Below are positions 5,170-63,543 of a stretch of DNA of 64,000 nucleotides, piece by piece. The notes under the pieces were generated by a model. The model had not been told where the DNA came from, ran no database searches, and was given only the letters and a program-made list of their open reading frames with translations. The translations under genes were made by a program, and so were the position numbers. The DNA is from an uncultured Candidatus Saccharibacteria bacterium (GTDB taxonomy: Bacteria > Patescibacteriota > Minisyncoccia > Phycocordibacterales > UBA1006): assembly GCA_964507625.1 (NCBI GenBank), contig CAZDPR010000003.1, positions 15,101 to 79,100 on the forward strand, read 5' to 3'. Numbering within the stretch: the first letter of the stretch is position 1; each line of letters starts with the position of its first letter.

Positions 5170-6144
5170 TTATTTTTTCTTCACTACCAATAATTGTGTC
5201 ACCAATGCCGTCATTTGATCTTTTTTCTCGGGCTTACTTTCTGCAATTAATAACGTCAGCGCGGTGAGCGTGCTCGGATTAATATTTCTATACCCCTTTA
5301 CCTGATATTTACGCAAAAACCAAATAAACGCCCATGCACCACTGCGTTTATTCCCATCAACGAACGGGTGGTTTTTCACCATAAAATATAACAAGTGTGC
5401 TGCTTTTTCTTCGGTAGTTGCATAAATTGGTTTTCCGTCGAATGACTGCATCACGTTTCCGATGATCCCCTCTACTGATCCCATTGATCGTTCTTGAGCA
5501 AAAATGTCAGTTGCTTCACCTTTTTTGATCAAGTCATTACGGAGCGTCGCAATCGAATCACGTAATTCATCTGCAGATACGGTGATTGATTTTTTGGCGG
5601 TTCCTACTGGGGTGAGTAATTCTTTGTCATATGCATCGAGTGATGCCCATGTGGTAGAAAATTCTTTTACTAATTCTAAAATACTTTTTGGATCTAATGT
5701 GGCATGTTCAGGGAGGAGGTTTTGGATTGCGGTAACGGTTTTGAGGAATTCCTGATGATTCTTTTGAATTTGCTTACGATTTATCACATAACCTTTGATA
5801 AAGTAATCTTTTAAGATCTTACTTACCCATTTACGAAATTCAATTGCTCGACCTGAATTCGTCCGATATCCAACTGCTAAAATAATATCCAAGGAGTAGA
5901 AATTAACGGGTTTATCAGAATTTGCAATGTGCATTTTTTGCACATTGCTTTTTTCACCAACTTCTTTTGATTTTAAAATATTATTAATGTGTTTAGTAAC
6001 TACTGATCGTTCTACTCCAAACACCTCGGCAATTTGTGCCTGAGTCGCCCAAATCGTTTCATGCGAAAAATCCCCACGGAACTGAATTTCTCCGGAAGAT
6101 GCTTGATATAACACTACAGAATTTTTAACGATTGGTTTTTTCAT
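5170..6144 (-). CDS. RhuM-family N-terminal domain fused to a Fic/Doc-fold domain (noncanonical motif HPFVDGNKRSG, Doc-like)
   Basis: The N-terminus is the COG3943/RhuM signature (FYSLDIILAVGYRTNSGRAIEFRKW). The C-terminal motif HPFVDGNKR is closer to the Doc kinase motif HxFxD(A/G)NKR than to the Fic motif GNGR. No in-cis S/TxxxE(G/N) inhibitory motif is present. Confidence 0.7.
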   Translation of the reverse strand: MKKPIVKNSVVLYQASSGEIQFRGDFSHETIWATQAQIAEVFGVERSVVTKHINNILKSKEVGEKSNVQKMHIANSDKPVNFYSLDIILAVGYRTNSGRAIEFRKWVSKILKDYFIKGYVINRKQIQKNHQEFLKTVTAIQNLLPEHATLDPKSILELVKEFSTTWASLDAYDKELLTPVGTAKKSITVSADELRDSIATLRNDLIKKGEATDIFAQERSMGSVEGIIGNVMQSFDGKPIYATTEEKAAHLLYFMVKNHPFVDGNKRSGAWAFIWFLRKYQVKGYRNINPSTLTALTLLIAESKPEKKDQMTALVTQLLVVKKK

Positions 6145-9175: not shown

Positions 9176-9679
9176 TTATTCGCAAGAAATTTTAGTATAT
9201 ACCCGATCAGTTTTTGTGCCACTAGTAGCATCAGGAATGAGCAGGTTTCCAATTTCCAATAATGGATATACATGTTTTGTTATGGTTTCTTCAGAAAGAT
9301 TATAAAGCTCCTGTTCTTTTCCTGGAGCTCCTTCAATGATATACGAGAAAATAACAACAGCTTCAGTTCCTGAAATTGTTCCTGATAATGTTCCTTGGTA
9401 TCCATTGGTCATATCTGGACCTGATTGAGTTCCTGTTTTTGATCCTTCAAATTCTGTTTCGGTTCGTTTAGTGACCGTAATAGTTTCAGTAACAGCATAT
9501 GGTTCAGATTCTGTTGGAGTGGCTATATATCGATAACACAACGGGTTAGAAAGTGGTTCAGAAACGAGAGTGGTTAGGTTTGAATCATCGGAATGATCGT
9601 ATCGATTCAAAACACGCATAATGAGTAATGATGCTAATAAAAGGATGAAAAATGCTATGGGAATAATTATTTTTTTCAT
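9176..9679 (-). CDS. Secreted/membrane-anchored Thr/Ser/Gly-rich hypothetical protein
   Basis: MKKIIIPIAFFILLLASLLI signal/anchor, then low-complexity T/S/G-rich sequence. Confidence 0.5.
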   Translation of the reverse strand: MKKIIIPIAFFILLLASLLIMRVLNRYDHSDDSNLTTLVSEPLSNPLCYRYIATPTESEPYAVTETITVTKRTETEFEGSKTGTQSGPDMTNGYQGTLSGTISGTEAVVIFSYIIEGAPGKEQELYNLSEETITKHVYPLLEIGNLLIPDATSGTKTDRVYTKISCE

Positions 9680-15711: not shown

Positions 15712-15741
15712 ACAAAAAACCATACGTGTATGGTTTTTTAT
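15712..15741 (-). terminator. Bidirectional rho-independent terminator (AACCATAC/GTATGGTT)
   Basis: aaaaaaccatacgtgtatggtttttt, with A/T runs on both sides. Confidence 0.7.
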
Positions 15742-24316: not shown

Positions 24317-24895
24317 ATGAAAAAATTTACCACCCTCCATGAACTTCATGCTCATTTTCACACAGTCAATACTTGCAGTTTAAAAGCAGATGCAAATCCT
24401 GTGTTTGGTGACGGAAATCCAGAATCAGCTATTGTATTCATCGGTGAAGCCCCTGGGAAAAAGGAGAACGAAACAGGAAAACCATTTATGGGTGCAGCAG
24501 GAAAATTTTTAAATGAAATGCTTGCCAGTATTAAACTGAACCGTGATGATATTTATATTACCAATATTGTAAAATATCGCCCACCCAATAATCGTGATCC
24601 AAAACCTGATGAAAAAGAATCGTGTGCGGATTGGCTCCGTGCAGAAATTACCTTTATCCAACCAAAACTCATTGTGTTTTTAGGGAGACATTCCATGAAC
24701 CATTTTTTCCCCGATTTAGTAATATCAGAAACTCACGGGAAACTCATCCATCAAACAATTCCAGACTTTCCTTGTGATTATTTCCTCCCATTCTATCACC
24801 CAGCAGCAGCGCTCTATAATGGAGGACTCCGCACGGAACTGATAAAAGATTTTAAAAAAATTCCCAAAATACTACAAAAAATAAAAAACGCATGA
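24317..24895 (+). CDS. udg: Family 4 uracil-DNA glycosylase
   Basis: GEAPG, FMGAAGKFLNEML and YHPAAALY motifs. Confidence 0.8.
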   Translation: MKKFTTLHELHAHFHTVNTCSLKADANPVFGDGNPESAIVFIGEAPGKKENETGKPFMGAAGKFLNEMLASIKLNRDDIYITNIVKYRPPNNRDPKPDEKESCADWLRAEITFIQPKLIVFLGRHSMNHFFPDLVISETHGKLIHQTIPDFPCDYFLPFYHPAAALYNGGLRTELIKDFKKIPKILQKIKNA

Positions 24896-24907
24896 TGCGT
24901 TTTTTAT
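24883..24907. terminator. Bidirectional terminator (AACGCA-tga-TGCGTT) between udg and the NDH-2 gene
   Basis: The stop codon lies inside the loop; A and T runs on either side. Confidence 0.7.
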
Positions 24908-26091
24908 TTAAATGGATTCAATCGAATCACTTTTGATAACGGGAGAATAGAAATAAAATATTTAAGATCGATAATTTTCCGTAACCATGACGATAATTTT
25001 CCAGCAATGACTATACCACCTACCGCAGTAATAGACCATCCATGACCAACACCGATATTGTATGCAACAGGTTTGGGTTGATATGATTGGTATGACTTCC
25101 CTAATATTTTTTGTGTGATTACATAGGCAACATAATTACCATTATGAATAGCAGTCTGTGCTAATCCTGAATATTCCGTATCAGCAATATCTCCGATAAA
25201 AAAACAATTTTCTTGATCTTTTGCTTCGAGGTATTCATTAACTTGAACACGACTTTTCTTTTGCAGAATAATATTTGAAGTTTGATTTACTAATTCATTA
25301 CTGACTGTTCCTGCTGTCCAGATCAATGTTTTTGCACCTAGTGTCATATCAGCCAACGCCACGGTCCATGAACCCTGCTTTAATAATTGACGATTACATA
25401 AAATATTTACCCCTAATTGGCGTAATCGTTTGGTAGCAAGTTGTTGCACTTTTTCTGGCATCATAGGTAATATACGCCCTGCCCCTTCAATAATATCAAC
25501 CGTTACTAATGATTCATCCAGCTTATGTTCTTTACATAAATGTTTTGCATATACTGCAAGTTCTCCTGCTAAATCTACCCCGTTTGGTCCAGCACCTACA
25601 ACAACAAAATGAAGCCCTACCACACAATCTGCAACATCTCCATTATCACAATGTTTTGCAAATAAAGTTTGAATGTGAGTTCGTAATCGTTCTGCGTGGG
25701 TAGTATTTTGAAATGGAAACGACATATCTGCTAATCCTTGAATTCCAAAAAAGTTTGATTCTGAACCAACTGCCATTATCAAATAATCTGCTTGCATTGT
25801 TTCACCAGACGCAAGAGTGATTGTTTTTGTGCTTGTATCGCACCCTATTACTTTTTCTATGACTAACTGCACTTTATGATTTGAAAAAATATCCTCTAAA
25901 GGAATACGATGATAAGATACTGGACCTTTGATAGATAAGTACCCATGGAGTGCGGGATAATATTCAAAAGATGACCGGTCTGAAATAAGTATAATTTCAA
26001 TTCCCAGCTTTTTAGATCGTTTAGATAATTGAAGCGCAGTTTGTATTCCTGCAAATCCTCCACCCACAATAATCACTTTTTTTGTCTGCAT
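24904..26091 (-). CDS. ndh: FAD-dependent NADH dehydrogenase (NDH-2-like pyridine nucleotide-disulfide oxidoreductase)
   Basis: VIIVGGGFAG and GAGPNGVDLAGEL dinucleotide-binding motifs. Confidence 0.7.
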   Translation of the reverse strand: MQTKKVIIVGGGFAGIQTALQLSKRSKKLGIEIILISDRSSFEYYPALHGYLSIKGPVSYHRIPLEDIFSNHKVQLVIEKVIGCDTSTKTITLASGETMQADYLIMAVGSESNFFGIQGLADMSFPFQNTTHAERLRTHIQTLFAKHCDNGDVADCVVGLHFVVVGAGPNGVDLAGELAVYAKHLCKEHKLDESLVTVDIIEGAGRILPMMPEKVQQLATKRLRQLGVNILCNRQLLKQGSWTVALADMTLGAKTLIWTAGTVSNELVNQTSNIILQKKSRVQVNEYLEAKDQENCFFIGDIADTEYSGLAQTAIHNGNYVAYVITQKILGKSYQSYQPKPVAYNIGVGHGWSITAVGGIVIAGKLSSWLRKIIDLKYFISILPLSKVIRLNPFK

Positions 26092-27814: not shown

Positions 27815-27847
27815 TTAAGAAAAGCTGTTCTCTAACAGCTTTTCTTT

Positions 27848-30939: not shown

Positions 30940-31305
30940 AACACTTCGAATAGTATTATGATTCTTGTTGGTATTATAGGAGCTTTGGTTATTGGTTTTT
31001 TTCTTGGAAAAGGTTCTGGTATGTCAAAAATGCATCAGGAAATGATGTCAGGAGATACATCAATGCATAGCATGATGATGGATATGACTGCATCATTACA
31101 AGGAAAAACAGGTGCGGAATTTGATCGAGCATTCCTCGCAGAAATGATTATTCATCATGAAGGAGCAGTGGATATGGCTAAAATGGTATTAGAACAATCA
31201 GATCGACCAGAACTCCAACAATTAGCAAATGAAATTATTACCGCACAAGAAAAAGAAATTGACCAAATGAAAAACTGGCAAAAAGAATGGTTCTCAGCTG
31301 AATAA
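30940..31305 (+). CDS. DUF305 family protein (four-helix-bundle, metal-binding type) with N-terminal TM anchor
   Basis: DRAFLAEMIIHHEGAVDMAKMVL...IITAQEKEIDQMKNWQKEW is the classic DUF305 signature. The ORF opens at 30874; the likely start is MNTSNS at 30940. Confidence 0.75.
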   Translation, partial: NTSNSIMILVGIIGALVIGFFLGKGSGMSKMHQEMMSGDTSMHSMMMDMTASLQGKTGAEFDRAFLAEMIIHHEGAVDMAKMVLEQSDRPELQQLANEIITAQEKEIDQMKNWQKEWFSAE

Positions 31306-31340
31306 TAAAAATACACACGATACAGTGTGTATTTTTATTA
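31306..31340. terminator. Bidirectional terminator (ATACACAC-gatacag-GTGTGTAT)
   Basis: Perfect 8-bp stem plus T run. Confidence 0.75.
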
Positions 31341-33065
31341 TCGATCAGGAGGAATATTATAATAATTAATGAGAAAATTAGTAATATTTAAAAATGGGTC
31401 AACGAGTGTTTCAGAAGAAAACTGAGCTCCTTTTTTAGGATATTCATTCATTAAAAATATAATAAATTTTGGGTCATAAGCCGGAAAATATCCTACAAAG
31501 GTATGTAAATTGCGATCTTCATAATAGCCTCCAGATTCACGATTTGCAATTTGTGCAGTTCCTGTTTTTCCCGCAATAGAATAATGTTTTAATTTTTTGG
31601 TACCATTAAAATAACTATCGAAAGCATTCACCATCATACGAGTTATTTCTTCTGAACTTTCTGGTTTGATCACTGTTTTTAATATCGTTGGTTCAATAAT
31701 TTTTTTTGTACCATCAATATATTCAATATATTCAACAACGCGCGGTTGCATTAATTTCCCACCATTAGCAAGTACCGACATAGCTCGTGTCATCCCGATT
31801 GGTGTCGCAGCAATTCCTTGTCCGAAAGCAATATTGGCGAATTCTACATCACGATTGGTGCGTAAATTTGAAACGAGACCCTTAATTTCCCCCGGTAAAT
31901 CAATTCCTGTAGTTTCTCCGAACCCAAATTTTTCAAATTGTTCTCGAAAATTATTTTTATCCATCCGTTGCATTGCAAACACCATTCCGGTATTCAATGA
32001 TTGATCAAGTACGGTTTGCATTGTAATAGTTCCACGTCCCTTGCGGTCAAAATTTCGAATCGTTCGATCTCCTACTTTGATAAATCCAGCATCATAATAG
32101 GTTGTATCAGCAGTAATCGCTCCTTGATCGAGTGCAGTTGCGAGAATAATTGGTTTCATAATTGAACCCATTTCAAAAACACTTTCAACTGCTGGGTTAT
32201 TTAATAATGCAACTGATGACACGTTTCGATAATTATTAATATCAAATCCAGGAGTTGATGCCATGGCAACAACTGCGCCTGTTTTTGGATCCATGATAAT
32301 TCCTGTAGTACGATCAGAATCCCATTGTTCGCGAATTAATTCAAGTTCATTTTGAAGCGAAGATTGCACCAACGGTTCTAGAGTAGTCACAATATCACCC
32401 TCAGTGGGAATTTCATCCTTTGAAAATTGAGTCAAATGAGTAAATACCTCTGCAAAAAAATTCACATACAATCCAGATGAAACCCTACTTAAAATATCAT
32501 CATAGAAACGCTCTAATCCATACCGTCCAACCAAATCATTATCTTTATATGCAACCAATCCAATAACATGGGGCGCTAGTAATCCTGAAGGTGAAAATCG
32601 AGCATTCATCTGATAGAGCGTTGCCGATTTTATTTGTAACTGTTTGATTTGTTCTGCTTGATCCTGGGTTAATTTCACCGCAAGTTCTTCATAGGTGTCA
32701 TTTTTTTTGGATACCTGTTTTATAAGTGTTTCCTGATCTAGTTCAGGGATAATATTTTTCAATGATTCGTAAAGTTGTTCTGGATTAAAATTTTCTTGTT
32801 GTTGGAGAATACTAGGATTCACCGTAAGCATAAAACCGCGGAGTAAACTTGCCCCTGATACTAATTCACCATTTTTCTTCTTAAAAAAAATACTTCCACG
32901 ATCAAATTGAGAATGAGCAGTTCGCACATACTGTCGATCAGCTTCTTGAGAATATTTTTCACCATGAACAATTTGAAGCCATGCTAATTTTGCAACAAAA
33001 AGAAGCCCTATAAAAATAAAGATGATAGAGATAATACGGATACGATAACCAAACACAGAAGACAT
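31338..33065 (-). CDS. ftsI: Class B penicillin-binding protein FtsI (PBP3)
   Basis: SIMKP (SxxK) and KTGTAQ motifs; sits in the dcw cluster after ftsL. Confidence 0.85.
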   Translation of the reverse strand: MSSVFGYRIRIISIIFIFIGLLFVAKLAWLQIVHGEKYSQEADRQYVRTAHSQFDRGSIFFKKKNGELVSGASLLRGFMLTVNPSILQQQENFNPEQLYESLKNIIPELDQETLIKQVSKKNDTYEELAVKLTQDQAEQIKQLQIKSATLYQMNARFSPSGLLAPHVIGLVAYKDNDLVGRYGLERFYDDILSRVSSGLYVNFFAEVFTHLTQFSKDEIPTEGDIVTTLEPLVQSSLQNELELIREQWDSDRTTGIIMDPKTGAVVAMASTPGFDINNYRNVSSVALLNNPAVESVFEMGSIMKPIILATALDQGAITADTTYYDAGFIKVGDRTIRNFDRKGRGTITMQTVLDQSLNTGMVFAMQRMDKNNFREQFEKFGFGETTGIDLPGEIKGLVSNLRTNRDVEFANIAFGQGIAATPIGMTRAMSVLANGGKLMQPRVVEYIEYIDGTKKIIEPTILKTVIKPESSEEITRMMVNAFDSYFNGTKKLKHYSIAGKTGTAQIANRESGGYYEDRNLHTFVGYFPAYDPKFIIFLMNEYPKKGAQFSSETLVDPFLNITNFLINYYNIPPDR

Positions 33066-39700: not shown

Positions 39701-40633
39701 TTATTTCCAAACATCTAATTCTTTAGCAATTTCCTCGACATGTTTTTTTGCATCTTTGGAGAGTTTTTTAGGTATTTTGATATGGGTAACAATGAGAAAA
39801 TCTCCTGCACGCATAAACCCTTGAGAAACTCCTTTCCCTTTTAATTTAATTACATGACCTACTGGCATGCATTCTGGAATTTCTATGGTTTCTTTACCAT
39901 CTAATGTTTCTATTTCTACCTTTCTCCCCAATAATGCATCACGTAATGACACTGACAAATCCATTACTAAATTATTTCCATCTTTATAAATAGTTCCATG
40001 TTTTTGTACACGAACCAAAATAAATAAATTTCCTGGTCGCCCATCGGTAATCGTTTCTCCTGCTCCGTCCATGCGTAATTGCTGACCATCTTCTACACCT
40101 GCAGGGATCGTGACGGAAACTTTTTTAGTTCCTTTTTGCACTCCGTCCTGATAATTGGGAACTTCGATTTCTTTGATAAACCCGCGTACTGATTCTTTGA
40201 ATGTCATGGTGATTTGTACCTCAATATTGCGCCCTTTACGCACGCGTCGTCCACCAAACCCAAACGCTGCTCCAAATAAATCACCGAGATCAAAATCATT
40301 CATATCAAAATGAACATTCCCTTGCTGGAACCCTCCCTGCTGTGCCTGTCGCATGATATCTTCCCATGAAAACCCACCGAAACCTTGTCCGAATGGATTT
40401 CCTCCCTGTCCGCCACCGAAACCAGCACCCGCAGAGCCGAATTGATCATACTGCGCACGCTTGTTTTTATCTGATAGTGTTTGGTAGGCTTCATTGATTT
40501 CCTTAAACTTTTTATCATCACCGCCGTTTTTATCAGGATGATGTTGATGAGCCAATTTCCGAAAAGCAGTTTTAATATCCGCATCAGATGCGGTTTTTTC
40601 AACTCCTAAAATTTTATAATAATCTTTTGACAT
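39701..40633 (-). CDS. cbpA: DnaJ-class co-chaperone, class B (J domain + G/F region + C-terminal domains, no CxxCxGxG zinc finger)
   Basis: J domain with DYYKILGV and the HPD motif; Gly/Phe-rich linker; no Cys repeats. Confidence 0.8.
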   Translation of the reverse strand: MSKDYYKILGVEKTASDADIKTAFRKLAHQHHPDKNGGDDKKFKEINEAYQTLSDKNKRAQYDQFGSAGAGFGGGQGGNPFGQGFGGFSWEDIMRQAQQGGFQQGNVHFDMNDFDLGDLFGAAFGFGGRRVRKGRNIEVQITMTFKESVRGFIKEIEVPNYQDGVQKGTKKVSVTIPAGVEDGQQLRMDGAGETITDGRPGNLFILVRVQKHGTIYKDGNNLVMDLSVSLRDALLGRKVEIETLDGKETIEIPECMPVGHVIKLKGKGVSQGFMRAGDFLIVTHIKIPKKLSKDAKKHVEEIAKELDVWK

Positions 40634-40782
40634 AGAATAGTAGTATATATTATTTTACGAGATTTCTCACCTCTATTTTTATTTCTATTTGATACAAATA
40701 AATAAGAGATTTGAAATATTTGACAAAATAATTATTTAAAGTATTATGTATTTATTCTTTTCAAAACTTAATTACTATTTCA

Positions 40783-40962
40783 ATGAAAAACAAGCTTCTC
40801 TTAATTTCTGGTTTAAACATTATTTCTGTTTTTGTTGTTGGTATTTTATTTTTATCCGACACACCAATAGAAAACATTGTTTTTTGGGTTTTAGTTTTTT
40901 TAATAACCATAAGTGCCATTACAGCAAAATTAACGCTCAGAATATTGAAAGAAAATTTTTGA
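40783..40962 (+). CDS. Candidate 59-aa two-TM membrane protein between dnaJ and dnaK (not in the supplied ORF track)
   Basis: Promoter TTGACA(40720-40725)-16-TATTAT(40742-40747). ORF MKNKLLLISGLNIISVFVVGILFLSDTPIENIVFWVLVFLITISAITAKLTLRILKENF. A nested terminator hairpin lies at 40978-41031. Confidence 0.35.
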   Translation: MKNKLLLISGLNIISVFVVGILFLSDTPIENIVFWVLVFLITISAITAKLTLRILKENF

Positions 40963-41028: not shown

Positions 41029-42930
41029 TTATTCCCCAGTTTTTTCTTGATTTTCATCTGACGAAGTTTCTTCAGAACCTTTTTCAGTAGTTGCATCCGT
41101 AGCTGTTTTTTCTTGCTCTCCGCCAGCTGGCGGATTCTGAATCACTTCATAAATCTTCATCATTTCATTCGAAAGATTCATGGTTGCGGTATCAATCGCA
41201 CTTGCATCGTCTTTATCTTTTACCTCTTTTAATTCTTTAATTTTTGTTTCAATAGATTCTTTTGTTTCTGTAGGGATTTTTTCAGCATATTCGCGTAAAG
41301 ATTTTTCTGCTGCAAAAATTGCTGTTTCTGCCTCGTTTCGTTTATCCACTAATTCCTTTTTCTTTTTATCTTCATCTGCATATTTTTCTGCATCTTCTTG
41401 CATTTTCTTGATATCTGCATCTGATAGACCCCCTCCTGATTGAATAGTGATTGACGCTTCTTTATTACTTGCTTTATCAATTGCTTTTACATTCAAAATT
41501 CCATTTGCATCAATATCAAAGGTTACTTCGATTTGTGGAATTCCTCGTGGTGCTGGCGCAATATCACCTAATACGAATCGTCCGAGTGACTTGTTATCAG
41601 TCGCCATTGGTCGTTCCCCTTGGGTAATATGAATTTCTACTGATGTTTGATTATCTGCAGCAGTAGAAAAGATTTGAGATTTTGATGTTGGAATGGTGGT
41701 ATTGCGTTCAATTAATTTTGTTGCAACCCCTCCCATGGTTTCAATCCCCAGTGACAATGGAATTACATCAAGGAGCAATACATCTTTTACATCTCCCTGT
41801 AATACCCCAGCTTGTACCGCAGCACCTAATGCCACTACTTCATCTGGATTGATTGATCGATTTGGTTCTTTACCAAACAATTTTTTAACTTCTTCTACAA
41901 TTTTTGGCATTCGAGTTTGCCCTCCTACCATAATGATTTCATCAATTTCATTCATTTTAAACGGTGAAGCTTCAATAGCTCGTTTGGTAATAGCGATAGA
42001 TTTATCAATGTATGGTGCAGCGAGTTCTTCCAATTTTGCACGCGTCATTTTCATCATCAAGTGTTGTGGTACTCCATCATTTTGTGCAATGAACGGAATA
42101 TTGATTTCTGTTTCATTGGTTGTAGAAAGTTCGTGTTTTGCTTTTTCTGCAGCTTCTTTTAATCGCTGTAATGCAAGCACATCTTTGGTAACATCAATTC
42201 CTGAATCTTTTTTAAATTCGTCCCCAATCCATTTTACAATTTCACGGTCAATGTCTTCACCTCCCATGTGGGCATCTCCATCGGTTGATTTCACTTCTAC
42301 CAAATCTGCCCCAACCTCGAGAACAGAAATATCAAATGTTCCACCTCCAAAATCGTACACGGCAATTTTTTGATCTTTTTTAGAATTGAATCCGTACGCC
42401 AACGCCGCCGCAGTTGGTTCATTAATTATTCGCTTTACATCCAGTCCCGCAATTTTACCCGCATTTACCGTTGCTTGTCGTTGACTATCGTCAAAATATG
42501 CTGGCACCGTGATCACCGCCTCGGTAATTTTTTCACCGATTTTTGCTTCTACATCGGCTTTGATTTTTGCAAGTGTCATCGCAGAAATTTCTTCTGGTCG
42601 ATAATCTTTATCTCCCAATTTGATCGCAACACCATCATCTGACCCTTTGGTGATTTTGAATGGTGAATGATCAATATCTTTTTTTACTACTTCGTCACTG
42701 AATTTGTGACCCATGTAGCGTTTAATTCCAAAAATGGTGTTTTCTGGATTAGTGACCGCTTGGCGTTTTGCCAATTGCCCTACCAATCGTTCACCATTTT
42801 TTGCGAGCGCCACGATTGACGGAGTTGTTCGTGCACCTTCTGTGTTTTCAATAATTTTTGGTTGACCACCCTCGATAATTGCTACCGCACTGTTGGTGGT
42901 TCCAAGATCAATTCCAATGATTTTTGACAT
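41029..42930 (-). CDS. dnaK: Chaperone DnaK (Hsp70)
   Basis: [14 protein letters not shown] start; full Hsp70 NBD and SBD. Confidence 0.95.
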
Positions 42931-43028
42931 ATTTTTGTAAAAATTATTCTTAATTTTTAATAATCTCTTCGTTCTGAATAACAACCATTCCGAAGTTAGC
43001 TTAAGTATAAACAAAAAAATATTTTTTG

Positions 43029-43058
43029 ACAAGTTTTTTGCGTTCGCAAAAAACTTGT
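43029..43058. promoter_or_regulatory. Perfect 14-2-14 inverted repeat (ACAAGTTTTTTGCG tt CGCAAAAAACTTGT) overlapping the -35 elements of divergent promoters
   Basis: The dnaK promoter on the minus strand is TTGTCA(43032-43027)-17-TATACT(43009-43004). The PaaX-like gene promoter on the plus strand is TTGTTT(43055-43060)-17-TATTAT(43078-43083). Confidence 0.55.
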
Positions 43059-43103
43059 TTAAATAAAAATATAGTGTTATTATTTATAAGAACCAAGAAT
43101 ACT

Positions 43104-43649
43104 ATGAAAAGTAACGATTATTCCAAAAAAATACTGAAAATCCTTTCTGAAAATCGAGCCTTGTCCTTTTCTGATATTACTTCGGAACTGGTAAAAGACA
43201 TTGCTGGAAACGCAAAAAACGACCCAAAAAAGGCCGTATATGCAGTAAATCGATCACTGAAAGGGCTCATCGAATCTGGTGTCATAGAGCGCCATTTTTC
43301 TGGTCAAAACAATTATGCCCGATTAACGGAATCAGGGCGTAAAAAAGCAACTACGCTTAAATTAGAAAGCGAAACCTCACTCCTCCCTAACTGGGATGGT
43401 CAGTGGCGAATAATACTCCTCGACCTCCCCGAATCCCGCAAATCAGAACGCGAGGCGCTCCGGTATTTATTAAAAAAAGCAGGATTCACCTGCCTTAAAA
43501 ACTCAGCTTGGATTTCCCCCTATCCATTTGAACATCTATTCATGAATATTAAAAAAGATCTGGGACTCACAACCGAAATGATGATCATTACCACCAATAA
43601 TCTGGACTTAGAAACAGAAATAGAATTGGTAAAAATATTACAAAAATAA
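43104..43649 (+). CDS. PaaX-family-like transcriptional regulator (N-terminal winged helix + PaaX_C-like domain)
   Basis: C-terminal WDGQWRIILLDLPESRKSEREALRYLLKKAGFTCLKNSAWISPYP matches the PaaX_C pattern; N-terminal wHTH. Confidence 0.55.
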   Translation: MKSNDYSKKILKILSENRALSFSDITSELVKDIAGNAKNDPKKAVYAVNRSLKGLIESGVIERHFSGQNNYARLTESGRKKATTLKLESETSLLPNWDGQWRIILLDLPESRKSEREALRYLLKKAGFTCLKNSAWISPYPFEHLFMNIKKDLGLTTEMMIITTNNLDLETEIELVKILQK

Positions 43650-43692: not shown

Positions 43693-44559
43693 TTATTCAG
43701 TTTTACCGACAATTATCTGCGTAGCACCGGCTCTAGCAAGAGTAATTTGACGACCAAAGTCTTGCATACCTTTTGATTGGTAAATCCTGTCGGCATTTGC
43801 TGCATCGATTGCCTGCTGCGTTAAAGGTTGAAAATCTGGAACCATTTCAAAAGTTGAGATTTGAACACCTCTTGCTTTAAGGTCCTGATTGATAAGTTCC
43901 ATATAAGTTAACTCCAATGCATTGATATCATGAGCTACCACATCTTCTTTTGGAAACTCATCAGTAGTTACTCTTTTAATACGGGTTTCAATTACTCTGT
44001 TTTCGGCTCCTTCAAAGCGCTGGTTATCATCCTGAGCATCATCTGTTTCGGCATTGGTTTTTCCCAGCTTTTTTGCGTGCTTCATAAATAGTAACGGATC
44101 TGCGATCAGGTAACTATAGGTCAATCTTATTTTTACCTTTACCTGGTCTTTAAAGAGAACATAATATTCCATGTCACCTTGCATTTCATAGCCTGGCATA
44201 GTTTCTTTAATGAAACACATATTTCCTGTTCCTGCTGGAACCCGAGAACCTACCGGAACCTGTTTCCAGTTTACTCCACAATCTTCACTATAAAGTACAA
44301 TTTGATTTGTTTTAGAGTAAGTGCAACTACTAAGAAAACCACCGGCAAGAATGAGTAAAAAAATTGAAGACAATTGAGAAATACCCTTTGCCGCATAAAA
44401 AACCACACGAATCCCAATAATTAGCAATAAGAACAGAAAAGCTGTTTGGTACCAAGGGGCCGTAACCCAATAGTTTCCAGAAACAACAACATTGTACCAA
44501 ATTGTTCCACCCCATAAAGCAAAGATGGCGAGCAGGCTGTACAAAAATACTTTTTTCAT
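43693..44559 (-). CDS. SPFH/band-7-like membrane protein
   Basis: Three N-terminal TM helices plus a C-terminal domain with SPFH-like pattern. Confidence 0.35.
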   Translation of the reverse strand: MKKVFLYSLLAIFALWGGTIWYNVVVSGNYWVTAPWYQTAFLFLLLIIGIRVVFYAAKGISQLSSIFLLILAGGFLSSCTYSKTNQIVLYSEDCGVNWKQVPVGSRVPAGTGNMCFIKETMPGYEMQGDMEYYVLFKDQVKVKIRLTYSYLIADPLLFMKHAKKLGKTNAETDDAQDDNQRFEGAENRVIETRIKRVTTDEFPKEDVVAHDINALELTYMELINQDLKARGVQISTFEMVPDFQPLTQQAIDAANADRIYQSKGMQDFGRQITLARAGATQIIVGKTE

Positions 44560-44670: not shown

Positions 44671-45273
44671 TTAGTTTGCTTTATATACTACCACCCGCGC
44701 TGGACGGATCACCTTATCCCCCATCATGTATCCCTTTTGAATAATGGTAGCCACTGTATCATCTTGGGATTGGTCGTTAGTATCCTCTGTTTTCATTGGT
44801 TCATGTTTATTCGGATCAAATGCAATACCTACTGCAGAAATTTCTGTCACTCCATAATCATCTAATACTGTTTTCATCTGGTTATAGATATATTCTACCC
44901 CCACGCGCCAATTCGCATCTACAGCGTTCCACGCATCGGTATTCCCCATAGCCATATCAAAACTATCGAGTACTGGCAAAAAACTCATAATCATTCGTTC
45001 CGTAGTTTTTTGTTTTACTACATCGGCGATTTCATCTTTTTCCTTTTTCAAGTTTACATAATCGGCACGAGATCGTTGAAGTGCAGTAAGGTGTTCCCGA
45101 GATTCAGATTGTGATTGTTTTAATTTTTCTCGTAAATCTTTCAGCTTTGCTTTGTCTTTTTTTTCATCTCCCACCCAATCGAGTTCTTCGAATTCCAAAT
45201 CCTCAACTGATTCTTCGATTGATTCATCGTCAATAATTTCATCTAATTGTTCAAATTCTTTTTCATCAGACAT
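44671..45273 (-). CDS. grpE: Nucleotide exchange factor GrpE
   Basis: Acidic N-terminus, coiled coil, GrpE C-terminal beta domain. Not linked to dnaK. Confidence 0.85.
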   Translation of the reverse strand: MSDEKEFEQLDEIIDDESIEESVEDLEFEELDWVGDEKKDKAKLKDLREKLKQSQSESREHLTALQRSRADYVNLKKEKDEIADVVKQKTTERMIMSFLPVLDSFDMAMGNTDAWNAVDANWRVGVEYIYNQMKTVLDDYGVTEISAVGIAFDPNKHEPMKTEDTNDQSQDDTVATIIQKGYMMGDKVIRPARVVVYKAN

Positions 45274-45381
45274 AATCGTTTCAATAAATTAACAGTAATA
45301 TTCGTTCAGAATGAACATTCTGATTATACATAATTTTAGAAATAAAAAAAGCCATAAATAAAAAACACCCTTTGGTGTTTT

Positions 45382-45795
45382 TTATCGTTTTGACCATTGT
45401 GATGATTTTCGAGCTTTTTTAAGTCCGAATTTACGACGTTCTTTTGATCGAGCATCTCGTTTCAAAAATCCAGCTTTTTTCAAATCATCTTTTGATTGTT
45501 CATCTAATTTTACCAATGCTCGAGCAATTCCATGTCGGACTGCTTCTGCTTGGGAATGAATACCTCCTCCAGAAACTTTTACCGTTACGGTGTATTCAGC
45601 AACATTTTCAGTTTCATGAATTGCACCCATAGCAGTTTTGAAAAGTTCTGTTGTTGGGAAATACTCTTTGATTGATCGGTCATTTACCGTTACTACTGTT
45701 TTATCTGCCGGTGTCAATCGTACACGCGCTGTTGAAGTCTTTCGACGCCCAATGGCAGTAGTGTATTGTGTTGTTGTTGATGGTGACATAGGCAT
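45382..45795 (-). CDS. rpsI: Ribosomal protein uS9
   Basis: GRRKTSTARVRL...ends SQWSKR. Confidence 0.9.
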   Translation of the reverse strand: MPMSPSTTTQYTTAIGRRKTSTARVRLTPADKTVVTVNDRSIKEYFPTTELFKTAMGAIHETENVAEYTVTVKVSGGGIHSQAEAVRHGIARALVKLDEQSKDDLKKAGFLKRDARSKERRKFGLKKARKSSQWSKR

Positions 45796-52189: not shown

Positions 52190-52261
52190 AGTATCTATAG
52201 TATACTATATGAAGGTAATTTTATGCAAAAATAAAAAGAGGATAACTTCCTCTTTTTATTT

Positions 52262-54019
52262 TTATTCAATTACCGCTTTGATACGTCGCACTCCTGCACT
52301 ACTCGCTTCTTCTTTTTGAATTTTGAAACTTCCAATGAGTCCTGTGTGTTCGATATGAGGACCACCACAGAATTCTTTTGAGATTGCAGAATCCAAATCC
52401 TGTCCGATGTAATACACGGAAACCATATCAGGATATTTTACTCCGAATTCCATTTCTGCACCGATTTGTTCTGCTTGTTCTCGTGGCATTTCTACGCGTT
52501 GCATTGGTAGATCTTGTGCAATCCATTCGTTTACCAACTTTTCAACTTCAGCTTTTTGTTGATCAGTCATTTTTACATCATGACTAAAATCAATACGGAT
52601 ACGCTCATCGGTAATATTACTCCCCCGCTGGTGCACATGATTACCGAGAACTTGTCGGAGCGCTGCGAGTAATAAATGATGTGCAGTATGAGAACGAATA
52701 ATTTTGTCAGACGTACCACCTAATCCTCCTTTGAATTTTTGTTCTGCACCTGATCGAGATAATTCCTGATGAACTTTCATTTCTGCATCAAACTTTGCAC
52801 GATCAATAGTAATCCCCTTTTCAGCTGCGAGTTCCTCGGTTAGCTCGATCGGAAATCCATAGGTTGTTGCGAGAATAAATGGATCGGTTCCCTTTTCAAA
52901 TTCTTTGAGTCCAGAATCAAGTGTTTTGTAAAATTTTCTTTCTTCTTCAGAAAAAACATTTCCTATTTCAACTAAAACACTTTCACCTTGTAATTCTGTA
53001 TAAATATTTTTATAAATTTCAACTACCGCTGAAACTATTGGAAATAAATTGAAAGAACCTTTAGTTAAATTATACCCTCTCAAAATTGCACGACGCATCA
53101 ACCTTCTCAAAATATATCCTTGGTCTTTATTGTTTGGGCGAACTCCATCTAAAATCATGAATACAGACGTTCGAACATGATCTGCGATAATCCGCCTTGT
53201 TTTAATATCAATATTACTTGAAAAATTATCAATTCTTTCATTTATTAGCAAAAAAATATCTGTATCATACGCTGTAACTTTACCTTGCATTACTGCAGTT
53301 AATCGTTCTAATCCTGCGCCAGTATCCACATTTTTCTGCGATAATTTGCCAATGACTTTCCCATCTTTTTTCTCGTATTCCATGAATACATCGTTCCAAA
53401 TTTCAATGAATTTTTCTTGGTTAATAAGATTAAGAAAATTATCATGAGCAATTTGTTGCCCCACGTATTCTCCTCGCATGTCATAAAACATTTCACTACA
53501 TGGACCACAGGGACCATTATCACCTGGACTCCACCAGTTATCGTCTGCCGGTAGTGCATAGATACGATGTTCTGGAATTCCAAGTTTCATCCAAATGTCT
53601 TTTGATTCTTGATCATATGGCGCGTTTTCATCTCCTGCAAAAATAGTCACCGCGAGCCGTGCAGGATCAAGTCCGAGACCTTCATCTTTACTCGTTAGAA
53701 ATTCATAGCTCCATTTGATTGCATCATCTTTGAAATAGTCACCCAATGACCAATTCCCTAACATTTCAAAAAATGAAAAATGTCGATTGTCACCAATATC
53801 ATCCAAATCCCCTGTTCGTACACATTTTTGACATGATGCAAGACGTTTTCCCAGTGGGTGCGACTGTCCCATGAGATACGGTACGAGCGGTTGCATTCCC
53901 GCCGTATTAAATAATACCGACGGATCATTTTCTGGAACTAGTGACGCAGACGGTAAAATCGCGTGACCGCGTTGTTTAAAGAATTCCAAGAATCGAGATC
54001 GAATTTCTGATGATTGCAT
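52262..54019 (-). CDS. alaS: Alanyl-tRNA synthetase (catalytic + editing domains; no C-Ala domain)
   Basis: N-terminus MQSSEIRSRFLEFFKQRGH; editing-domain HTAHHLL and CGGPH motifs; 585 aa. Confidence 0.85.
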   Translation of the reverse strand: MQSSEIRSRFLEFFKQRGHAILPSASLVPENDPSVLFNTAGMQPLVPYLMGQSHPLGKRLASCQKCVRTGDLDDIGDNRHFSFFEMLGNWSLGDYFKDDAIKWSYEFLTSKDEGLGLDPARLAVTIFAGDENAPYDQESKDIWMKLGIPEHRIYALPADDNWWSPGDNGPCGPCSEMFYDMRGEYVGQQIAHDNFLNLINQEKFIEIWNDVFMEYEKKDGKVIGKLSQKNVDTGAGLERLTAVMQGKVTAYDTDIFLLINERIDNFSSNIDIKTRRIIADHVRTSVFMILDGVRPNNKDQGYILRRLMRRAILRGYNLTKGSFNLFPIVSAVVEIYKNIYTELQGESVLVEIGNVFSEEERKFYKTLDSGLKEFEKGTDPFILATTYGFPIELTEELAAEKGITIDRAKFDAEMKVHQELSRSGAEQKFKGGLGGTSDKIIRSHTAHHLLLAALRQVLGNHVHQRGSNITDERIRIDFSHDVKMTDQQKAEVEKLVNEWIAQDLPMQRVEMPREQAEQIGAEMEFGVKYPDMVSVYYIGQDLDSAISKEFCGGPHIEHTGLIGSFKIQKEEASSAGVRRIKAVIE

Positions 54020-61036: not shown

Positions 61037-62443
61037 TTAAATAGGAAGATTAGCGGGTGGTTCAGCTTTTTGGGCAGCAATACGCTCAAATGATCCTGTA
61101 GTGGAAACACGACCAGGAAAATGGAAAATTGTTGCAAGCTCTTCAGTGTTGAGCGTGAACGGTTTTTTTCCATCTTTTTCAACAGAAAAGAAATAAAATT
61201 TATCTTCTGAAGAAGTTGCAGGTGCATAATAATATGCACGCTTTACATATTGTTCAAACATTTTTTTCTGATTTTTTGTAGCACGAACACCTTCGGGATC
61301 TTGCCAAGGAAAATCAAATGCATTTGTAAAATTGGTCATTGATAAGCCATTGTAAGGCGCTGTTTTGGGTGCTGCAAACTGACGAAGCGCACTAGTGATT
61401 TCTGTCGGACAACGCATACCATTAAATGATTCTTTTTTAGCGTAATAAATGACCCGAATACCAACATCAAAACCGAGTTTAGTAATACTTCGTTCAATCC
61501 GATCAACAAGCTCTTTTTTATCTGGGGGAAGATTTTTATATCCACCTACTTTTTTTGCTTTTTCACCTTCACCTGCAGTTGCAGTTGCGTAATCATCGAG
61601 AATTTCCTTAACCAATCGTTGACCCTGTGCCTGCCAGTCCTCAATCTTACCATCTTTTTCTAAATGAAGATAGTCTTCCTTTTCACCAAATAAATGTTTA
61701 AAAAACCAGTCTTCTTGTTTTGCTTCACTGAGTTTTAAATTTTTACCAGCAGCCCGAACGAAAATCTGAATCCAAACCTGCTCACCTTTTTTCAGTGAGC
61801 CAAGCATTTCGATGAGCGGTGTGAGCGGATCAATTTTCTGTTCTTCATCTAATGATAATGATTTATTATCCATTCCAAAATCTAAATAAGTTTTAATAGG
61901 AATAGCATCATCCTTGTCAAGCTTCATTTCAAAACCACGTAATTCCCAACCATTTCCTTTTGCGAACTTGGGAACATATCGGGTATAGTCATCAACTTCA
62001 GTTACTTCAGCATTAGGATATTGTGAATAAATTTGTGTTTCTACTAAATTTTTAAATCGTGATTCTATGCGAATGAAAAAATAAATATTTCCTTCAATAG
62101 AAACAATTTCAAGCGTATGGTACGCCATTACTTTTCCTTTCCAGTTTCGGTCATACCAAGTTCCCACCCCGCCTGCCTGATATAATGCATTCGCTAAAAT
62201 AATTTCCATAGCTTCTGGAGTTTTATATACATCTTTTGGAATTTTTACTTCAAGGAGCGACCATTTGAGCCCTGATAAAAATTCTAATCGCTTCTTTTTT
62301 TTCCACCAATTTTGTGCCAATAAAAAAGAAACTAACGGAACCCAAACGACCGATGTTTTTATTACTATCGGTATAATGAGTTCACTCATGACTGATTCTA
62401 TAATAATCATAGATGTTCCAAGTATACCACAAACAAAAAACAA
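61037..62443 (-). CDS. Hypothetical membrane protein (468 aa; 2 N-terminal TM helices + large soluble domain)
   Basis: ORF; no recognised motif. Confidence 0.4.
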   Translation of the reverse strand: MFFVCGILGTSMIIIESVMSELIIPIVIKTSVVWVPLVSFLLAQNWWKKKKRLEFLSGLKWSLLEVKIPKDVYKTPEAMEIILANALYQAGGVGTWYDRNWKGKVMAYHTLEIVSIEGNIYFFIRIESRFKNLVETQIYSQYPNAEVTEVDDYTRYVPKFAKGNGWELRGFEMKLDKDDAIPIKTYLDFGMDNKSLSLDEEQKIDPLTPLIEMLGSLKKGEQVWIQIFVRAAGKNLKLSEAKQEDWFFKHLFGEKEDYLHLEKDGKIEDWQAQGQRLVKEILDDYATATAGEGEKAKKVGGYKNLPPDKKELVDRIERSITKLGFDVGIRVIYYAKKESFNGMRCPTEITSALRQFAAPKTAPYNGLSMTNFTNAFDFPWQDPEGVRATKNQKKMFEQYVKRAYYYAPATSSEDKFYFFSVEKDGKKPFTLNTEELATIFHFPGRVSTTGSFERIAAQKAEPPANLPI

Positions 62444-62460
62444 CGGAAATCCGTTGTTTT

Positions 62461-63543
62461 TTATTTTACAATTGTATATAAACCGTCTTTTGTTTTTGTA
62501 AAATATTTTGGATTTTGCAAATTTACTAAAATAGTATTTTTCTTAAGGTATCGTTCTTTCATTACTTTTTCTACAATATCTTCTTTACTCATTGGTCCTT
62601 CTGCTTTCAAAATATCAGCAATAACATCACGTACTACTCCGGTTTTATAACCCCATTCTTTTAGTGCATATACACCACGTCCCACTAATACAAATCGATC
62701 ATCTTTGATTAATTCATTGTGAGTTGTTGCAATATGTGTTTTTTTACCAAAAGTTTTATTAATTGCTGCTGCTACTTCTCGGAAATGCATTGGTGATCCA
62801 TGTCGTCGCATAACTAAATATGCATAATCTTTCACCCCACGAGTTTTCACGTTAGGAGAACTCGCTCGACCCCATTCTCCAAGTTTGTTTGAAGAAAGTG
62901 TTTTTGAAATTTGCAACCATCGTTTTGCAGTAGTCGCATCAACGTTATGTGAATCAATTTGACACACACCCTCATGGCATAAAATACGATCAATGATTTC
63001 GTTTTCAGAAATAAGGTCATGTTCAGCAAGGCTCGCATGTACATCAATGAGCGCTCGGTGTACGGTTTCTGCAACAGGATGATTCGTCACCCAACGTTTT
63101 TTATATGAATGATCTTCTTTCATTTCTCGGAATTCATCACCAAGTGTTAAATAGAGAGCAATATGATTTTGAGTAACTCGATCTGGTGCCAACATGGGGA
63201 GTAATTCTTCTTCTGCAACAATTCCACCTAAATCCTGAATAATTTTTTTCAATTCAGCAAAAATTTCTTCTGCCTCATGATAACTATCTGATTTTTTGAT
63301 AGCATTCAATGCAAAATTTTCAATTTGTCGTACTCGTTCACGAGTAATACCATATCGATTACCGATTGATTCTAAGGTCATTCGTTCTCCTGTGTCATCA
63401 AGTCCGAAACGGTTAACAACCACTTGCTGTGCTCGATCTTGGAGATGTTTTAACAATTTTTTTGTTGTCTGTTTTGGTTTAAAAGTAATAGTCACCTTTC
63501 CCATAAAATTCAGCGTAAGAAAGTTAAATGGATAATAGAACAA
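62461..63543 (-). CDS. Sigma-70 region-4-like HTH fused to C-terminal HARE-HTH-type winged-helix domain(s)
   Basis: TLESIGNRYGITRERVRQIENFALNAIKK matches sigma region 4.2. SPMHFREVAAAINKTF...RFVLVGRGVYALKEWGY matches the HARE-HTH pattern; a second HARE-like segment runs from SKEDIVEKVMKE to DGLYTIVK. Confidence 0.5.
   Translation of the reverse strand: MFYYPFNFLTLNFMGKVTITFKPKQTTKKLLKHLQDRAQQVVVNRFGLDDTGERMTLESIGNRYGITRERVRQIENFALNAIKKSDSYHEAEEIFAELKKIIQDLGGIVAEEELLPMLAPDRVTQNHIALYLTLGDEFREMKEDHSYKKRWVTNHPVAETVHRALIDVHASLAEHDLISENEIIDRILCHEGVCQIDSHNVDATTAKRWLQISKTLSSNKLGEWGRASSPNVKTRGVKDYAYLVMRRHGSPMHFREVAAAINKTFGKKTHIATTHNELIKDDRFVLVGRGVYALKEWGYKTGVVRDVIADILKAEGPMSKEDIVEKVMKERYLKKNTILVNLQNPKYFTKTKDGLYTIVK

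Follow-up and report, generated by a model that had tools for sequence, protein, structure and literature searches.

The 64-kb window analysed here (64,000 nucleotides of contig CAZDPR010000003.1, from the genome of an uncultured Candidatus Saccharibacteria bacterium) contains a perfect 14-2-14 palindrome, ACAAGTTTTTTGCG-tt-CGCAAAAAACTTGT, at positions 43029..43058. It lies between the divergently transcribed genes for DnaK, on the minus strand, and for a short PaaX-like regulator, termed mini-PaaX, on the plus strand. The palindrome, read directly from the sequence and assigned to neither strand, is a local variant of a family consensus, and we predict that it is an operator. Most probably it serves the adjacent mini-PaaX, which would be an autoregulated repressor dedicated to the dnaK operon. 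The link between the regulator, the operator and dnaK is very likely; repression by the regulator is probable, and heat or stress is the somewhat favoured input.

Conserved palindrome upstream of dnaK

The gap between dnaK and the regulator spans 173 bp (42931-43103) and includes the palindrome, whose exact position and sequence agree with the description in an earlier note on this DNA, as do the gene coordinates that define the gap. The palindrome is present in a single copy in the window at up to three mismatches, and no copy is expected from shuffled sequences. Perfect inverted repeats of this kind, having arms no shorter than 14 nt and loops no longer than 6 nt, would arise by chance 0.03 times in 64 kb, as estimated by first-order Markov simulation of the window.

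The regulator has 2117 detectable relatives, the best 120 of which were listed. A scan of GTDB with one genome per species identified 393 regulator relatives, and 80 of them were kept for the analysis of loci. About 16 kb was read per related locus; L-numbers below denote related loci and P-numbers denote protein relatives. Gene order was established by tblastn with DnaK, DnaJ, GrpE and the regulator from the window, together with gene calls.

The family consensus, ACAAGTATTTCGYG-RY-CRCGAAATACTTGT, is conserved in 198 loci, with one site in each. It comprises an inner core, TTCGYG-RY-CRCGAA, and outer ACAAG/CTTGT blocks. Positions C2, T8, T9, G12 and G14 and their mirror positions are invariant; the site in the window is a perfectly symmetric variant with A7 replaced by T and C11 replaced by T, both mirrored in the other arm. 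A position weight matrix derived from the intergenic regions of related loci finds a site, and no more than one, in 79 of the 82 genome loci, and the three loci without a site include two that are cut at or near the 5' end of the regulator gene. True sites score from 25 to 51 bits, and the best of 2000 random 200-bp windows scores 4.9 bits. At a threshold of at least 12 bits, neither the 16-kb loci nor the 64-kb window, grpE included, yielded a second site. A scan of approximately 1.9 Mb of related loci also yielded no second site, even in the 200 bp upstream of dnaK or the regulator in those loci where the site has moved away from the gene. We also scanned metagenome contigs blindly, with a pattern taken from the DNA motif alone. 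At least 120 loci were returned; 118 of the 120 matches listed adjoin the regulator and/or dnaK, and the other two are chance half-matches inside genes of organisms with 44–53% GC.

The earlier note had suggested looking for the palindrome in related genomes and at other heat-shock promoters. The former holds, as the 79 genome loci and the 118 blind matches at the same locus demonstrate; the latter does not, as grpE has no copy and no locus has a second site. Because of the absence of a site at grpE and of second sites in the loci, the predicted regulon looks confined, within the sequence scanned, to the dnaK unit and the regulator itself.

The position of the site relative to the two genes varies in a restricted way. 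Among 169 related loci with both genes, the site is within 300 bp of both in 128, and in 30 it is beside the regulator, with other genes before dnaK. In three loci (L005, L010 and L020) it is beside dnaK only, the regulator being 1.4–3 kb away, and in the remaining eight it lies between the genes, more than 300 bp from both, still ahead of a string of minus-strand genes leading into dnaK. No substitute site was found at the partner that the site has left. Since the inserted genes are co-directional with dnaK and substitute sites are absent, the predicted operator always heads the minus-strand gene string ending in dnaK, and usually it is also at the regulator promoter.

Conservation is a property of the sequence and not of the pairing between arms. 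Among 139 unique sites, only nine are perfect palindromes, and most have two to five mismatches between the arms. Changes at mirrored positions overwhelmingly affect one arm (at positions 5 and 26, 61 one-arm changes vs one symmetric change), so that compensatory changes are almost absent. Conservation is higher in the right arm, on the regulator side, than in the left one (20.8 vs 19.0 bits). This pattern, with sequence conserved and pairing not, identifies the site as a predicted operator of a dimeric protein rather than a hairpin. An RNA or DNA hairpin or a terminator was considered and rejected: the arms show no covariation, and the site is flanked by the starts of two genes and precedes the predicted transcription start of each. 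It has no match in Rfam.

Seven more perfect palindromes are present in the window, at 15714-15739, 24879-24909, 27817-27846, 31302-31341, 45358-45385, 52227-52263 and 62435-62462. They have arms of 12–17 nt and A-run/T-run flanks, all are located between gene ends, and they are probably bidirectional intrinsic terminators. The chance expectation for the window is 0.15 perfect palindromes with arms of 12 nt or more. Within this class, the dnaK/regulator palindrome is the only one situated between two gene starts.

Overlap with predicted divergent promoters

The predicted dnaK promoter, TTGTCA-17-TATACT on the minus strand, was found by a consensus scan, with the -35 hexamer at 43032-43027 and the -10 hexamer at 43009-43004. 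On the plus strand, the regulator promoter was read by eye from the sequence as TTGTTT-17-TATTAT, with the -35 hexamer at 43055-43060 and the -10 hexamer at 43078-43083. Each -35 hexamer overlaps the palindrome by 4 nt at its outer end, in the left arm on the dnaK side and in the right arm on the regulator side. The overlap with both -35 elements had been noticed before, and it stands, with the qualification that the regulator -35 is weak.

In relatives, the dnaK-side hexamer over the left arm is TTGTCA, TTGCAA or TTGCTA. It is followed at a distance of 16–18 nt by a -10 hexamer that is a perfect TATAAT in 84 of 180 loci and matches at least five of the six positions in 124. The regulator-side -35 of relatives is variable (TTGTAT, TTGTCA or TTGTAC), and the regulator promoter in the window aligns in position with their conserved TTGTAT/TTGTCA hexamer and the -10 hexamer 17 nt away. 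The regulator ATG keeps a very nearly constant distance from the site (mode, about 34 nt), and dnaK starts anywhere from 17 to approximately 1500 nt away from it. In most relatives the regulator ATG follows the -10 hexamer by about 6 nt, which suggests that the regulator mRNA may be leaderless there; the leader in the window would be about 14 nt long.

Several loci have additional structures in the leader regions. In eight loci (L021, L033, L038, L045, L046, L058, L069 and L078), ATGTCAAyCCC stands in place of the usual regulator start, ATGTCAAG, and is followed by a GC-rich hairpin of 25–45 nt; the real start codon is further downstream. In these loci, a hairpin-bearing leader is inserted at the predicted transcription start. 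On the other side, a long GC-rich hairpin of 100–150 nt separates the promoter of dnaK from its start codon in L025, L035, L041, L045, L048, L065, L070, L073, L082 and L084. It is absent from the window, has no Rfam match in L048, and seems to occur in either orientation depending on the species (L084 vs L065). Such behaviour points to a mobile or palindromic insert of small size and not to a leader conserved among these genomes. The 5' untranslated region of dnaK folds modestly better than shuffled sequences (z=-2.0). An Rfam scan of the window and three loci detected tRNAs only and no known RNA thermometer.

A short regulator related to PaaX

The regulator (43104..43649, plus strand) is a protein of 181 amino acids that combines a winged helix with the central Cas2-like domain of PaaX, as assigned by Pfam, AlphaFold2 and Foldseek. 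Its start codon, ATG at 43104, coincides with the start position of all aligned homologues. Residues 96-175 match positions 3-82 of the 83 in the PF20803 (PaaX_M) profile (E=1.2e-20; 73.8 bits at a cut-off of 24), and the N-terminal winged helix has a weak Pfam match (E=8e-4). The AlphaFold2 model (pLDDT 80.8) has a winged helix-turn-helix of the H-H-H-E-E type at residues 6-74, followed by a beta-alpha-beta-alpha-beta domain. The best Foldseek match is the E. coli PaaX structure 8A39 (E=3.7e-6; 178 aligned columns), followed by the PaaX-like structures 3L09 and 3KFW; Foldseek also aligns the regulator to many other regulators with a winged helix-turn-helix. A sequence profile search against solved structures gave no significant match, and it was the fold comparison that revealed the kinship with PaaX.

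The resemblance had originally been assigned to the C-terminal domain of PaaX; the motif in fact belongs to the central PaaX_M domain. The regulator ends at residue 181, immediately after the Cas2-like domain, and has no Pfam match to the PaaX C-terminal domain. All 28 aligned homologues are equally short; in this alignment, the Cas2-like domain is almost invariant and the winged helix contains a variable insert. The score against the TIGR02277 equivalog model is 41.1 bits, below the cut-off of 264.55. Since the C-terminal ligand domain is absent and the equivalog score is below the cut-off, the regulator is not orthologous to PaaX; it is a distant, truncated relative.

The best 120 of the 2117 relatives are 60–100% identical to the regulator and about 180 amino acids long. 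A hidden Markov model search of 1.84 billion cluster representatives (50% clustering) found 3515 short PaaX_M proteins. Just 21 of these have E-values below 1e-30, and thus the dnaK-linked group is a tight core inside a large family of short PaaX_M proteins.

More distant members of the family have related but distinct palindromes, which fits co-evolving pairs of regulators and operators. P0139, with 43% identity to the regulator of the window, is divergent from dnaK and has the operator. P0157 (L213; 35% identity) is divergent from a grpE-dnaK operon and has a variant, ACAAGTATTTCAC-TATA-TTGAAATTGTTGT, at L213 1146-1183, in which the CGCG core is missing. P0166 (L208; 35% identity) is located beside pilin-like and type IV pilus genes, not dnaK. 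About 17 nt upstream of its start, at L208 4937-4984, is a perfect 23-2-23 palindrome, TCCACTATCCCCATCTTGTGACG-GT-CGTCACAAGATGGGGATAGTGGA, with a CG-GT-CG centre. No palindrome was found upstream of P0150 (36% identity), which does not adjoin dnaK. It may be general in this family for a regulator to have its own operator with a CG-RY-CG centre.

Genomic context of the regulator

The gene order dnaJ, dnaK, regulator and grpE, with only the regulator on the plus strand, is retained in essentially every one of the 80 GTDB-species loci. All these loci are from Patescibacteria, with the labels Paceibacteria, 'Nomurabacteria', Minisyncoccia or generic Candidate Phyla Radiation (CPR). The regulator and dnaK are divergent in 169 of 169 related loci with both genes, which settles the question, raised with the original observation, of whether the two are syntenic in relatives. 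They are separated by at most 190 bp in 34 of 75 loci, and the remaining loci have inserted genes. Essentially every gene inserted between the site and dnaK is transcribed in the same direction as dnaK. A scan of 48 inserted open reading frames (ORFs) found six small P-loop kinases and, as candidates with a connection to proteostasis, two J-domain proteins and one trypsin-like peptidase, most ORFs having no assignment; the set is heterogeneous and has no additional conserved regulon member.

In the window, dnaK (Hsp70; 41029..42930, minus strand) is the first gene downstream of the predicted operator and was assigned by its translation, with a typical N-terminus. Its relatives (PF00012) are 67–92% identical by tblastn in related genome loci. 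The dnaJ gene (39701..40633, minus strand; Pfam DnaJ and DnaJ_C) follows after a spacer of 395 bp. Co-transcription of dnaJ with dnaK is uncertain, because this spacer contains a plus-strand ORF and a hairpin. The ORF (40783-40962) encodes a hydrophobic protein of 59 amino acids with two predicted membrane helices; it has a strong promoter-like sequence, TTGACA-16-TATTAT, at 40720-40747, and a hairpin with a T-run downstream. Its promoter, terminator and location between dnaK and dnaJ are as the earlier note described. A tblastn search of 86 related loci found no relative of this ORF. In L001 and L008, an unrelated plus-strand ORF of 66 amino acids occupies the same position between dnaK and dnaJ.

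The grpE gene (44671..45273, minus strand; Pfam GrpE, E=5.9e-39) is convergent with the regulator and, as noted previously, belongs to a separate unit, behind rpoA-rplQ-rplM-rpsI. We regard it as context and not as a demonstrated target. Between the regulator and grpE is a gene for a protein of 288 amino acids (43693-44559, minus strand) with a weak SPFH/Band 7 match (E=6e-4) and no tblastn match in any related locus. This slot is variable in relatives, where it contains genes for DoxX, cytochrome b5-like, rhodanese or ABC transporter proteins. Elsewhere in the window, in an otherwise housekeeping stretch, a 324-amino-acid ORF with RhuM-family and Fic/DOC domains (5170-6144, minus strand) is possibly a toxin or mobile-element gene.

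Other candidate regulatory elements

Heat-shock control in bacteria is exerted by sigma-32 and by the HrcA/CIRCE, HspR/HAIR, CtsR and RheA systems. No CIRCE element (TTAGCACTC-N9-GAGTGCTAA) was found within three mismatches in the window, and none near dnaK or grpE in 1.15 Mb of related loci, where a single match with four mismatches is not at a chaperone promoter. For HAIR (CTTGAGT-N7-ACTCAAG), the same 1.15 Mb contains three scattered matches with two mismatches. The only one of them near a dnaK promoter, in L037, was rejected as an unconserved hairpin of a single locus. A Pfam scan of 29 ORFs of the window detected no HrcA domain, and none is adjacent in the related loci with gene calls; groEL and clpB are also absent from these 29 ORFs, and no groES or further heat-shock gene was seen in the sequence scanned. 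These scans bear out the initial impression that the locus has no CIRCE element and no adjacent hrcA.

A different element connects dnaK with grpE in the window. The 12-mer ATTCWGAACGAA has exactly two copies in the 64 kb, at 42968-42979 and 45301-45312 on the minus strand. Both are on the sense strand just downstream of the -10 hexamer, of dnaK (...TATACTtaagctaaCTTCGGAATGGTTGTTATTCAGAACGAAG) and of grpE (...TGTATAATCAGAATGTTCATTCTGAACGAAT), respectively. The closest relative, L007, retains the element at both genes (at about 7867 and at 9195-9215), and more distant loci do not have it. It may be a second cis element coupling dnaK and grpE in a narrow lineage, either an operator at +1 or a motif of the 5' untranslated region.

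Proposed mechanism and alternative explanations

We infer that the adjacent regulator binds the palindrome. According to the proposed mechanism, a regulator dimer bound there would extend over the outer 4 nt of each -35 hexamer and would repress the near-consensus sigma-70 promoter of dnaK together with the regulator's own promoter. Release of the repressor from DNA would de-repress dnaK and the regulator, and freshly made regulator would reset the system. Repression is the simplest interpretation because the promoters are near consensus and the operator touches both -35 hexamers. The target is predicted to be dnaK because the inserted genes are co-directional with it, the site stays with dnaK in three loci, and the dnaK-side promoter is conserved. 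The Cas2-like domain would serve for dimerisation, and sensing could occur through a heat-labile dimer or through titration by DnaK, as in HspR. We speculate that these are likelier inputs than a small-molecule ligand, because the regulator lacks the sensor domain of PaaX and its Cas2-like domain hardly varies. The earlier note had proposed an autoregulated repressor of dnaK in a non-canonical circuit. The synteny, the conserved site and the lack of CIRCE and HAIR now support that proposal; its repressive action and response to heat keep their presumptive status.

Several observations weigh against this interpretation. The presumed pairing of the regulator with the site is based on their co-occurrence and adjacency. 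The regulator -35 in the window matches the consensus at three of six positions, and the promoter was not listed by the scan tool. The site is centred at about -46.5 from both predicted start sites (about 42997 on the minus strand and about 43090 on the plus strand), upstream of both, which fits activation too. The dnaK-proximal arm is degenerate in L033, L050, L071 and L080, where dnaK starts 17–28 nt from the site; the promoter geometry differs, and the -35 and -10 hexamers are not clearly assignable. With dnaK starting so close, the predicted operator must overlap the dnaK core promoter in these four loci. Because grpE has no site and groES, groEL and clpB were not seen, a role as a general heat-shock regulator is unsupported. 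Finally, the ATTCWGAACGAA motif may be the true stress-responsive element in the lineage of the window.

A regulator centred at about -46.5 could alternatively be an activator, bringing RNA polymerase to the two promoters and inducing, under stress, both dnaK and its own gene. The location of the site upstream of both -35 hexamers with only partial overlap, and a regulator-side -35 that is weak in the window and variable in relatives, would suit such a role. We nevertheless consider activation unlikely. It should be needless at a dnaK promoter that is near consensus and has a perfect -10 in 84 of 180 loci, and the loci with dnaK starting 17–28 nt from the site require an overlap of the operator with the core promoter. 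All dedicated regulators of dnaK operons with palindromic operators that are known to us, namely HrcA and HspR, are repressors. PaaX, the nearest characterised relative, is also a repressor and acts by excluding RNA polymerase (PMC9493321). Still less probable is autoregulation of the regulator alone, with the adjacency of dnaK being an inherited gene order and the real targets or function lying elsewhere. It would explain why the spacing of the site is fixed relative to the regulator and variable relative to dnaK, why the regulator-side arm is better conserved, and why other genes separate the site from dnaK in 30 of 169 loci. However, no other site was found in 1.9 Mb of related sequence, and 118 of the 120 blind matches listed are at this locus. 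The site stays upstream of dnaK in three loci and, in eight more, is distant from both genes (more than 300 bp) yet ahead of the dnaK gene string, while inserted genes are co-directional with dnaK. Furthermore, the dnaK-side -35 and -10 hexamers are at a fixed distance from the left arm, and the divergent adjacency is retained down to 35% identity, once with a grpE-dnaK operon.

It is very improbable that a protein other than the adjacent regulator binds the palindrome. The pairing is deduced from co-occurrence in partial genomes, which leaves some room for this explanation. At the same time, the gene and the site co-occur one-to-one and adjacent to each other (79 of 82 genome loci and 118 of the 120 blind matches listed), and the distant members in L213 and L208 have altered but related palindromes upstream of their own genes. 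We give hardly any credence to the palindrome as a structural element without a regulator, such as a bidirectional terminator, a cruciform or a repeat remnant. Its T-run/A-run arms do resemble the seven terminator-like palindromes of the window; but it sits between two gene starts and not gene ends, a 2-nt loop cannot form, and there is no Rfam match. Moreover, its sequence is retained across proteins that are 35–60% identical, and its pairing is not, the arms differing at two to five positions in most loci.

Functional implications

To our knowledge, almost nothing is known about transcriptional regulation in the CPR. The predicted regulator–operator pair described here is a core feature of one large CPR class and is tied to a central chaperone gene. 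Among GTDB species representatives, 393 encode the regulator, which accounts for more than 2000 protein clusters. We searched the literature on PaaX-like regulators, dnaK and heat shock in Patescibacteria and found no description of such a system; the protein family is not known to have been linked to chaperone control before and was known only for aromatic catabolism. One subfamily of the short PaaX_M proteins, which are widespread, gains a candidate function from the analysis. The defined 30-bp operator and the 181-amino-acid protein make a directly testable pair, and the combination of operator and gene could be used as a marker for annotating dnaK promoters in these genomes.

A bolder extension, which we put forward only tentatively and regard as rather doubtful, is that mini-PaaX is the dedicated proteostasis sensor of a CPR class (Paceibacteria/'Parcubacteria') that may lack HrcA, HspR and sigma-32. 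The Cas2-like domain would then sense as a heat-labile dimer interface or as a client or partner of DnaK, with free DnaK setting the repressor activity. If true, this would be a fourth, structurally unrelated solution to chaperone feedback control and the first function to be assigned among short PaaX_M-only proteins, a large family with about 3500 representatives at 50% clustering.

Comparison with known systems

HspR, a regulator of the MerR family, is encoded by the last gene of dnaK-grpE-dnaJ-hspR, uses DnaK as a co-repressor and binds the operator CTTGAGT-N7-ACTCAAG. The HspR/HAIR system of Streptomyces, Mycobacterium, Helicobacter and Campylobacter is the best functional analogue of the one proposed here. 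Each has a dedicated autoregulator whose gene accompanies the dnaK operon, inverted repeats serving as operator at the dnaK promoter, and a tiny regulon, although in our case these are predictions. The differences are a PaaX-type winged helix-turn-helix with a Cas2-like fold instead of a MerR protein, divergent transcription, and a 14-2-14 operator unlike HAIR. Low-GC bacteria, and many others, usually rely on HrcA/CIRCE; the hrcA gene is normally located before grpE-dnaK, and groESL is usually under CIRCE control as well. A negative regulator of a chaperone operon with a long palindrome near the promoter would be common to both systems, repression being presumed for mini-PaaX. In contrast to HrcA/CIRCE, the present system has no CIRCE, no hrcA-like gene before grpE-dnaK, and no second site was seen.

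The arrangement of a predicted repressor and its target, divergent and with promoters overlapping common palindromic operator DNA, is also similar to that of TetR/tetA, in which the repressor controls its own gene and the target at once; TetR/tetA involves an unrelated protein family and two operators instead of the single one here. The closest structural relative is PaaX, the repressor of phenylacetate catabolism in E. coli W and Pseudomonas, where it is found with the paa genes. PaaX is a protein of approximately 305–316 amino acids with a winged helix-turn-helix, a dimerisation motif and a helical C-terminal domain that binds phenylacetyl-CoA (PMC9493321). By excluding RNA polymerase at the operator TGATTC-N27-GAATCA, it represses the divergent paa promoters and its own promoter (PMC9493321). 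The two proteins share the winged helix and PF20803 domains (PaaX-type structures 8A39, 3L09 and 3KFW being the best structural matches), and mini-PaaX would similarly be an autoregulated repressor at divergent promoters. It differs from PaaX in its length of 181 amino acids without a C-terminal sensor, its TIGR02277 score below the cut-off, its dnaK, dnaJ, grpE, ribosomal-protein and rpoA neighbours in place of paa genes, and its operator. By these comparisons, the system is not an instance of HrcA/CIRCE, HspR/HAIR or canonical PaaX regulation; as expected of an autoregulated repressor at divergent promoters, it has a palindrome that overlaps both core promoters and is conserved along with the regulator gene.

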